DNA of 64,000 nt, from the NCBI GenBank assembly GCA_965277685.1, contig OZ255830.1:761617-825616 (forward strand), given 5' to 3'. Position 1 is the first letter of the stretch; each line of letters starts with the position of its first letter. This DNA comes from Alphaproteobacteria bacterium (lineage in GTDB: Bacteria > Pseudomonadota > Alphaproteobacteria > GM7ARS4 > CBDIDI01). Shown piece by piece: positions 16,901 to 17,218 of this stretch. The position numbers and the translations under genes were made by a program. The notes beneath the pieces are model-generated. The model was given only the letters and a program-made list of their open reading frames with translations. It did not search any database and was not told the DNA's origin.

Positions 16901-17218
16901 TGCCGCCGGTGAGGATCGAACTCACGGCCTCACCCTTCATGCCCCGCCAAAGCGGGCCATTGGACTATCCCTTCACCATCTCTCCCCTGCGGCTGGCCGC
17001 CGGCGGAACATTAGGTGTCGCCCGTCTAGTCTCTACACCTTCCTTATCACGATACCGGCATCTTAATATCAACCGATACGAACAAGGCTTGGCTCGGGAT
17101 TGCCCATGGCCGTCAAGCCACGGGTTTCCCCGAATTTGAGCGATGATATCCTGGCGGTTTCCCGACAGGCAGGCAATGTGCATACCAAGGGTGCGCTCTG
17201 CCACTGAGCTACGGCGGC
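16901..17218 (-). tRNA. tRNA-Thr(GGU), intron-split: 5' exon 17218-17184, 3' exon 16937-16901
   Basis: Joined exons give GCCGCCGTAGCTCAGTGGCAGAGCGCACCCTT-GGT-AAGGGTGAGGCCGTGAGTTCGATCCTCACCGGCGGCA, a complete cloverleaf: acceptor GCCGCCG/CGGCGGC, anticodon stem CACCC/GGGTG, T-loop TTCGATC. The 3' end reads ACA, so CCA is not fully encoded. Confidence 0.95.
16938..17183 (-). ncRNA. Group I self-splicing intron (Azoarcus-like, IC3-type), 246 nt
   Basis: Follows exon U36 and ends in G. P AAATTCGGGGAAAC (17124-17137), Q GGCAATCCCGAGCCAAGC (17087-17104), R GAAGGTGTAGAGACTAGACGGG (17021-17042), S GAAGGGATAGTCCA (16961-16974). P7 GACTA/TAGTC, P2 with GAAA loop, P9 hairpin. Confidence 0.93.

Follow-up and report, generated by a model that had tools for sequence, protein, structure and literature searches.

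[quoted passage not shown] A 2014 review (PMC3984707) contains neither a list of host tRNAs nor an entry for Thr. A 2020 preprint by Williams (bioRxiv 10.1101/2020.01.27.920355) describes a scan of about 80,000 genomes by which 17 new intron/tRNA classes were added to the 4 already known, making 21, and cites an intron database in which only Leu, fMet, Ile2 and Arg hosts are entered. In the naming used there '5Ug' stands for the site between tRNA positions 36 and 37, and the seed alignment holds Rba53.Thr.5Ug, whose P1 (ggUA...UUGcc) places it in tRNA-Thr(GGU) at 36/37 with U at −1 and G at omega, as well as the seeds Mti5.Thr.3Ug and Pgr210.Thr.2Ug.

Here we describe a split tRNA-Thr(GGU) gene found in a 64-kb window (the whole stretch of DNA analysed, part of a contig of at least 1.63 Mb) from an alphaproteobacterium. 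Our main reading, to which we assign a probability of about 0.88, is that of a functional tRNA-Thr(GGU) gene interrupted at U36/A37 by a compact, ORF-less, Azoarcus-like IC3 intron of the Thr.5Ug class. The published Thr.5Ug seed, Rba53, shares with it the tRNA-Thr(GGU) host, the 36/37 site, the U at −1, the terminal G and the UUGCC guide, together with exact blocks of 19-20 nt (CGCTCAAATTCGGGGAAACC and GGCAATCCCGAGCCAAGCC). The window copy differs from Rba53 in its L9 loop, which is UUUG and not the GAAA of the seed and most relatives, and also in its long P6, a different P8 insert, a tRNA without encoded CCA and a deep-branching alphaproteobacterial host.

The Azoarcus tRNA-Ile(CAU) intron (IC3; seed Aol6.Ile2.5Ug) resembles the window intron in its 36/37 site, its compact P1-P9 architecture, the GAAA loop on P2 and the P8 receptor-type motif CCUAA/AUGG; a 21-nt J6/7-P7 block of the window, GAAGGTGTAGAGACTAGACGG, is identical in the Azoarcus olearius seed, which is 75% identical to the window intron over aligned positions. 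The two differ in guide (GCC for GGU in the window, GUG for CAU in Azoarcus), in size (246 nt against about 205 nt) and in periphery, Azoarcus having an L9 GAAA and a P5 receptor (CCUAAG/UAUGG) that are both absent from the window. The tRNA-Arg(CCU) intron of Agrobacterium and Bartonella (BbgpI; PMC7717549) occupies the same 36/37 site in the same class of host, has no intron ORF and, as in the window, sits in a tRNA left unannotated by standard pipelines; for BbgpI, splicing in vivo and self-splicing in vitro have been demonstrated in Bartonella (PMC7717549). Its anticodon and guide are different, however, and its core identity to the window intron is lower than that of the Thr, Leu or Ile2 seeds. 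Finally, the cyanobacterial and plastid tRNA-Leu(UAA) intron has the same IC3-type core but sits in a different tRNA, between U34 and A35 (the '3Ug' class). It too is reported to depend on the anticodon stem for keeping its exons together (Zaug et al. 1993, cited in PMC3984707).

The split tRNA-Thr(GGU) gene and its surroundings

The gene lies on the minus strand at 17218-16901 of the window. Its 5' exon (positions 1-36; 17184-17218, GCCGCCGTAGCTCAGTGGCAGAGCGCACCCTTGGT) carries the anticodon G34 G35 U36 at 17186-17184, and its 3' exon runs from A37 to the discriminator A73 (16901-16937, AAGGGTGAGGCCGTGAGTTCGATCCTCACCGGCGGCA). Between them lies a group I intron of 246 nt (16938-17183), identified by RF00028, by the leave-one-out model R1 and by covariation (see below), which starts with ATGCAC, finishes with CATG, is preceded by U36 (17184) and has as its last base the omega-G (16938). 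ARAGORN called the joined exons as tRNA-Thr(ggt), the two exons together giving a perfect cloverleaf, and with introns allowed it reported the same tRNA in the genomic sequence, with a 246-nt intron (ttggt-intron-aaggg) between U36 (17184) and A37 (16937). The original prediction, made from the sequence alone, of two tRNA-Thr(GGU) halves parted by 246 nt exactly at U36/A37, with an insert that follows a U and ends in G, is thus borne out by sequence and ARAGORN on the minus strand.

With default settings ARAGORN called no tRNA in the whole 64-kb window, and it missed ten of ten related intron-bearing loci as well, as had been foreseen for standard annotation. To tools that are not intron-aware, this locus of the genome would seem to contain no Thr(GGU) tRNA. 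According to ARAGORN the window tRNA carries G1-C72, C2-G71, G35 and U36, which we take to be identity elements for ThrRS. It has no encoded CCA, the discriminator A being followed by CAT (window 16898-16901), whereas CCA is encoded in 8 of 8 homologous intron-bearing tRNA-Thr genes of other organisms.

The gene is located 186 nt upstream of gyrB (14210-16714, minus), on the same strand, and is divergent from an ORF with a rhodanese domain (17783-18211), dnaA (18175-19794), dnaN and recF. The rest of the window consists of ordinary housekeeping genes, among them carB, class I lysS, dnaE, spoT, secD and rho; a 912-aa ORF at 61257-63995 (minus) had no match in NCBIfam at E ≤ 1e-10. A search of 5.8 billion proteins found relatives of the window GyrB (14210-16714) that were at best 61% identical, the closest being from Rhodospirillales-like alphaproteobacteria such as Hypericibacter, Pelagibius and Kiloniellaceae. 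Since no other GyrB exceeds this value, we regard the host as a deep-branching alphaproteobacterium without close sequenced relatives.

Recognition of the insert as a group I intron

The only Rfam family to reach its gathering score in the 64-kb window was RF00028 (Intron_gpI), which matches 17191-16941 (minus) over the full model (positions 1-253) with 54.8 bits and an E-value of 3.8e-11; the gathering score is 50, so that the margin is only 4.8 bits. A covariance model, R1, was built from seven other Thr(GGU) introns and the Rba53 seed with the window sequence left out, and was trained on the 5' two-thirds of the intron alignment (136 model positions). R1 matches 17184-17017 (minus) at all 136 positions with 114.3 bits (E about 1e-28), and it has no second match in the 64-kb window. 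In addition, folding the window pre-tRNA alone to minimum energy gives the same helices as the alignment, with z = −3.05. Chance resemblance is excluded because a model trained without the window sequence gives the intron 114.3 bits as its sole match in the window, and the fold z-score points the same way.

An ORF of 102 aa overlaps the intron (16965-17273, minus). It has no match in Pfam and we rejected it as a protein-coding gene, in agreement with the earlier view that it is spurious. An intron-encoded homing endonuclease was also rejected, as 246 nt leaves no room for one. What is found in the anticodon loop at 36/37 is accordingly a compact tRNA intron of 246 nt with no Pfam-matching ORF.

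Core helices and covariation

We aligned eight full pre-tRNAs, the window and seven relatives (alignment A1). RNAalifold recovers from this alignment the tRNA arms together with P1, P2, P3, P4, P5, P6, P8 and P9, and P7 (GACUA/UAGUC) was added as a pseudoknot before pairs were counted. Across P1-P9 and the tRNA helices 96.5% of the 579 cells form standard pairs, compared with 39-47% in a slid control in which the 3' partners were moved by 1-3 columns. Changes on both sides occur in 31 of 73 pairs (8-16 when slid), and in 500 shuffles the observed value was not attained for any of the five measures. Double changes are spread over P2 (8/8 pairs), P3 (3/6), P6 (5/6), P8 (5/8) and P7 (1/5); the compensatory change in P7 is that of relative L127, which has GGCCA/UGGUC (U-A to C-G), and in P3 every cell is paired. 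The segments J3/4-P4-J4/5, P4'-J6, J6/7-P7-P3' and J8/7-P7' are invariant in 8 of 8 sequences including the window. In the window copy itself all helices pair, with single mismatches only in the P2, P5 and P8 extensions, and every core position that is invariant in the family is retained.

The internal guide sequence UUGCC (intron nt 8-12; 17172-17176, minus) is invariant in 8 of 8 aligned homologues. P1 is formed by the guide GCC with the anticodon GGU, the U36 (17184)-G10 wobble marking the 5' splice site, and its pairs are GC, GC and UG in all eight homologues. For the UU of the guide, intron positions 1-2 are the possible first partners, followed by A37 A38 of the 3' exon in what would be P10. 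A tandem UGCC UGCC at the guide (window 17168-17176) offers two possible P1 registers: the conserved one uses 17174-17172, and the second UGCC (17171-17168), which is the register taken by the Rfam alignment of the window intron, overlaps P2. We prefer the family-conserved register because the second loses two P2 pairs and is not common to the family.

The remaining elements, all on the minus strand, follow the usual order. P2 is a hairpin with a GAAA tetraloop (17150-17169; fold and covariation). The 5' strand of P3 (UCGCUC, 17138-17143) pairs with 17023-17018, and its 3' strand (GGGCGA, 17018-17023) is placed by alignment and covariation. The P4-P5-P4' domain (17093-17134) consists of P4 UUCGGGG/UCCCGAG and the P5 hairpin CCCGUGGC...GCCAUGGG, again supported by fold and covariation. 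P6 (17042-17087) carries an extension of about 33 nt, indicated by a fold of −15.1 kcal/mol and by alignment gaps in relatives, and five of its six basal pairs covary. The 5' strand of P7 (GACUA, 17027-17031) lies in the R element GUAGAGACUAGACGG and pairs with 16967-16963; its 3' strand (UAGUC, 16963-16967) lies in the S element AAGGGAUAGUCC and is placed by alignment and covariation. P8 (16974-17017; fold and covariation) contains the receptor-like sequence CCUAAU...GAUGG, and P9 (16941-16958) is a hairpin with a UUUG loop, supported by a fold of −11.0 kcal/mol and by alignment.

All the helices named in the original prediction are present (P3 UCGCUC/GGGCGA, P7 GACUA/UAGUC, P2 with its GAAA loop, and P9), and its likening of the core to the compact Azoarcus intron is supported to the extent that this is an IC3-type intron in the anticodon loop of tRNA-Thr(GGU).

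Related introns and assignment to the Thr.5Ug class

A pattern combining the S element, omega-G and the 3' half of tRNA-Thr was run against 185,579 species genomes and matched four loci (L121-L124); the pattern spanned 10-40 nt from AGTCC to the terminal G and missed members with a long P9, so that these four matches do not yield a frequency. Two of these loci, both from Rhodobacteraceae, have a window-type core at the same site: L123 (Pseudaestuariivita rosea H15) and L124 (a Thalassobacter MAG). A metagenome pattern (ACCCTTGGT, a gap, CAAATTCGGGGAAA) returned seven contigs, each with a tRNA-Thr(GGU) bearing a window-type intron at 36/37; the introns range from 204 to 341 nt, two of the contigs are identical and one is truncated. 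The search for other Thr(GGU) introns thus retrieved nine further examples at 36/37 from public genomes and metagenomes. The pre-tRNA had no blastn match among the plasmids of PLSDB. Against RF00028 the L123 intron scores 37.8 bits, which is under the threshold, and standard pipelines will therefore under-report the class.

Over core columns, identity to the window intron is 64-70% for the Thr.5Ug set, 66.7% for Rba53, 60% for the Azoarcus olearius Ile2 seed and 56-57% for the Arg.5Ug seeds. In NJ trees of the core with 13 published seeds (177-202 core columns) the window intron falls beside L123, L124, L127 and Rba53, without support; these trees do not recover the Thr.5Ug introns as one clade (bootstrap 0.03 or less) and give no support to their deep nodes.

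The original prediction proposed a new insertion-site family for bacterial group I introns, with Thr(GGU) as a host not known before. The silence of the 2014 review (PMC3984707) on Thr and the four hosts (Leu, fMet, Ile2, Arg) of the database cited by Williams could be read that way, but both halves of the proposal fail. The 36/37 site is that of the Azoarcus Ile2(CAU) and alphaproteobacterial Arg(CCU) introns. As for the host, the Williams preprint, with its 17 new classes, already has Rba53.Thr.5Ug (P1 ggUA/UUGcc) in its seed alignment, and the Rba53 core is 66.7% identical to that of the window over shared columns and 77% in pairwise alignment; the nine public examples come on top of this. 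We regard an unknown host as scarcely conceivable. The window intron combines tRNA-Thr(GGU), the 36/37 site, U at −1, G at omega and recognition by R1, and it belongs to the known Thr.5Ug class, with minor structural peculiarities; the Thr(GGU) host is already catalogued, though only in a preprint.

Peripheral contacts of the window intron

The peculiarities concern the periphery. L9 is UUUG in the window; among the seven relatives it is GAAA in five and GGAA in one, and in L124 P9 does not align cleanly. No P5 receptor motif is found in the window, where P5 is a continuous 9-bp helix with Watson-Crick or GU pairs throughout, and the Rhodobacteraceae copies have a receptor-like GCUAA...AUGC at this place. 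The window intron thus has neither a GNRA L9 nor a P5 receptor. It does have a GNRA loop in L2 together with a receptor-type motif in P8 (CCUAAU...GAUGG, where the canonical form is CCUAAG...UAUGG), and by analogy with Azoarcus the GAAA loop of L2 probably docks into the P8 motif. Among the eight aligned sequences only the window and L127 have the P6 extension. With UUUG in place of a GNRA loop in L9 and nothing receptor-like in P5, the window intron probably lacks one of the two peripheral clamps of the Azoarcus type. The L9/P5 contact varies within the class and is peripheral, not part of the core.

Loss of this clamp could weaken self-splicing. It is conceivable, although we think it unlikely, that the intron is genuine but splices itself inefficiently, with a host protein, an RNA chaperone or the extended P6 standing in for the missing L9/P5 contact. 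The UUUG loop and plain P5 helix of the window, set beside the mostly GAAA loops of its relatives and the receptor-like P5 motif of the Rhodobacteraceae copies, would fit such a dependence, as would the confinement of the P6 extension to the window and L127, and a dependence on protein factors in vivo is noted for many group I introns (PMC3984707). On the other hand, relative L125 and the L126/L129 type are likewise without a canonical receptor in P5, the GAAA loop of L2 and the receptor-like P8 motif of the window are intact, and the core is fully conserved. A window variant without the L9/P5 clamp could in any case serve structure-function work on small group I ribozymes.

Proposed splicing pathway and the demand for tRNA-Thr(GGU)

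We propose that the gene acts as a self-splicing precursor, with the chemistry modelled on that of the intron family. The pre-tRNA would be transcribed from the minus strand, and its tRNA arms and anticodon stem (CACCC/GGGUG) would form and keep the exons together. Pairing of the anticodon GGU with the guide GCC would produce P1, in which the U36-G wobble would set the 5' splice site; the first attack, after U36, would come from a free guanosine nucleotide sitting at P7. The terminal G (16938) would then occupy the G site while the guide UU and A37 A38 form the putative P10, and the 3'-OH of U36 would attack after omega-G, so that the ligated exons would restore a normal UUGGUAA anticodon loop; the splice junction would join ...CCCUUGGU to AAGGGUG.... 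RNase P, 3' trimming and the CCA-adding enzyme would complete the tRNA, the last being needed because CCA is not encoded in the window gene.

The same exons could instead belong to a tRNA pseudogene with a decayed, non-splicing intron, ACC being decoded by the product of another, intronless Thr(GGU) gene. The 64-kb view of a contig of at least 1.63 Mb leaves space for such a gene, CCA is absent here and present in all eight relatives, and scans near the gene and a fold of its 3' flank revealed no convincing promoter-like or terminator-like site. Yet the exons form a perfect cloverleaf, all family-invariant core positions are kept, the helices pair throughout apart from the single mismatches in the P2, P5 and P8 extensions, and a model built without this sequence scores it at 114 bits. 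We consider decay very improbable and favor a functional split gene.

In gyrB, dnaA, dnaN and lexA, 68 of 94 Thr codons (72%) are ACC, and given this dominance a Thr(GGU) tRNA should be in heavy demand and needed. If the split gene is the sole Thr(GGU) gene, an RNA-catalyzed step would be essential for the most used Thr codon, and the tRNA-Arg(CCU) gene of Bartonella offers a possible parallel for such dependence on splicing. More specifically, the window copy may be both the only Thr(GGU) gene of its host and a structural sub-variant in which the L9/P5 clamp was lost and a long P6 acquired; we advance this combined proposal tentatively, as a possibility somewhat short of an even chance. If true, ACC decoding would depend on a ribozyme with unusual peripheral contacts.

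Within the wider family one intron core serves different anticodons by way of three changed guide nucleotides (GCC for GGU here), which agrees with a spread of these introns from one tRNA gene to another through reverse splicing. The locus leaves current understanding unchanged; its value lies in annotation, with mild interest for ribozyme structure and intron mobility.

Additional observations

The other two loci matched by the genome pattern, L121:5090-5294 (plus; an uncultured MAG) and L122 at about 5882-6090 (minus; a Saccharibacteria MAG), have tRNA-Thr(GGU) interrupted at 36/37 by another insert, about 205 nt long. As in the window class there is a U at −1, a terminal G, a UUGCC guide and a GAAA-capped P2, but the core differs and reads GAAUAACGGUU...ACCGUGG...GACUGAC...CAGUCUAGUCC. 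The two inserts matched no Rfam family at E ≤ 0.01 and scored 15 and 9.7 bits with the Thr.5Ug model R1. P3, P4, P7, P8 and P9 can be assigned by eye, with covariation between the two copies, and the inserts look like a second group I lineage at 36/37 that standard models miss. The Saccharibacteria contig has a second intron-split tRNA about 2.5 kb away (L122:3020-3357, minus) with the anticodon CAU (Met, fMet or Ile2 type); its intron reaches the Rfam threshold with 63 bits, and ARAGORN mislabels the tRNA as Leu(cag).

The core 15-mer GTAGAGACTAGACGG occurs in at least 120 IMG/VR viral contigs (L001-L120); it is too generic for large collections, for which reason the host-specific gapped patterns were used. 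Among the matches listed, 80 of 122 15-mer sites lie inside a split tRNA gene according to ARAGORN with introns allowed, and the split tRNAs, again among the matches listed, comprise 65 Leu(UAA), 7 CAU, single cases of Lys, Gln, Thr(UGU) and Arg(UCU), and others. According to the 2014 review (PMC3984707) phage group I introns are all in protein-coding genes. The split tRNAs on viral contigs could stem from phage genes or, at prophage borders, from genes of the host.

Elsewhere in the window, the minimum of the cumulative GC skew falls at about 58-60 kb, together with a reversal in the sign of the skew. The only perfect DnaA box (58634-58642) and two boxes with one mismatch (58081 and 58679) lie within the interval that separates maf (57675-58529, minus) from rho (59140-60396, plus), or next to it. 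Replication probably starts at window 58000-59150, about 40 kb from dnaA and the split tRNA, and not at dnaA.
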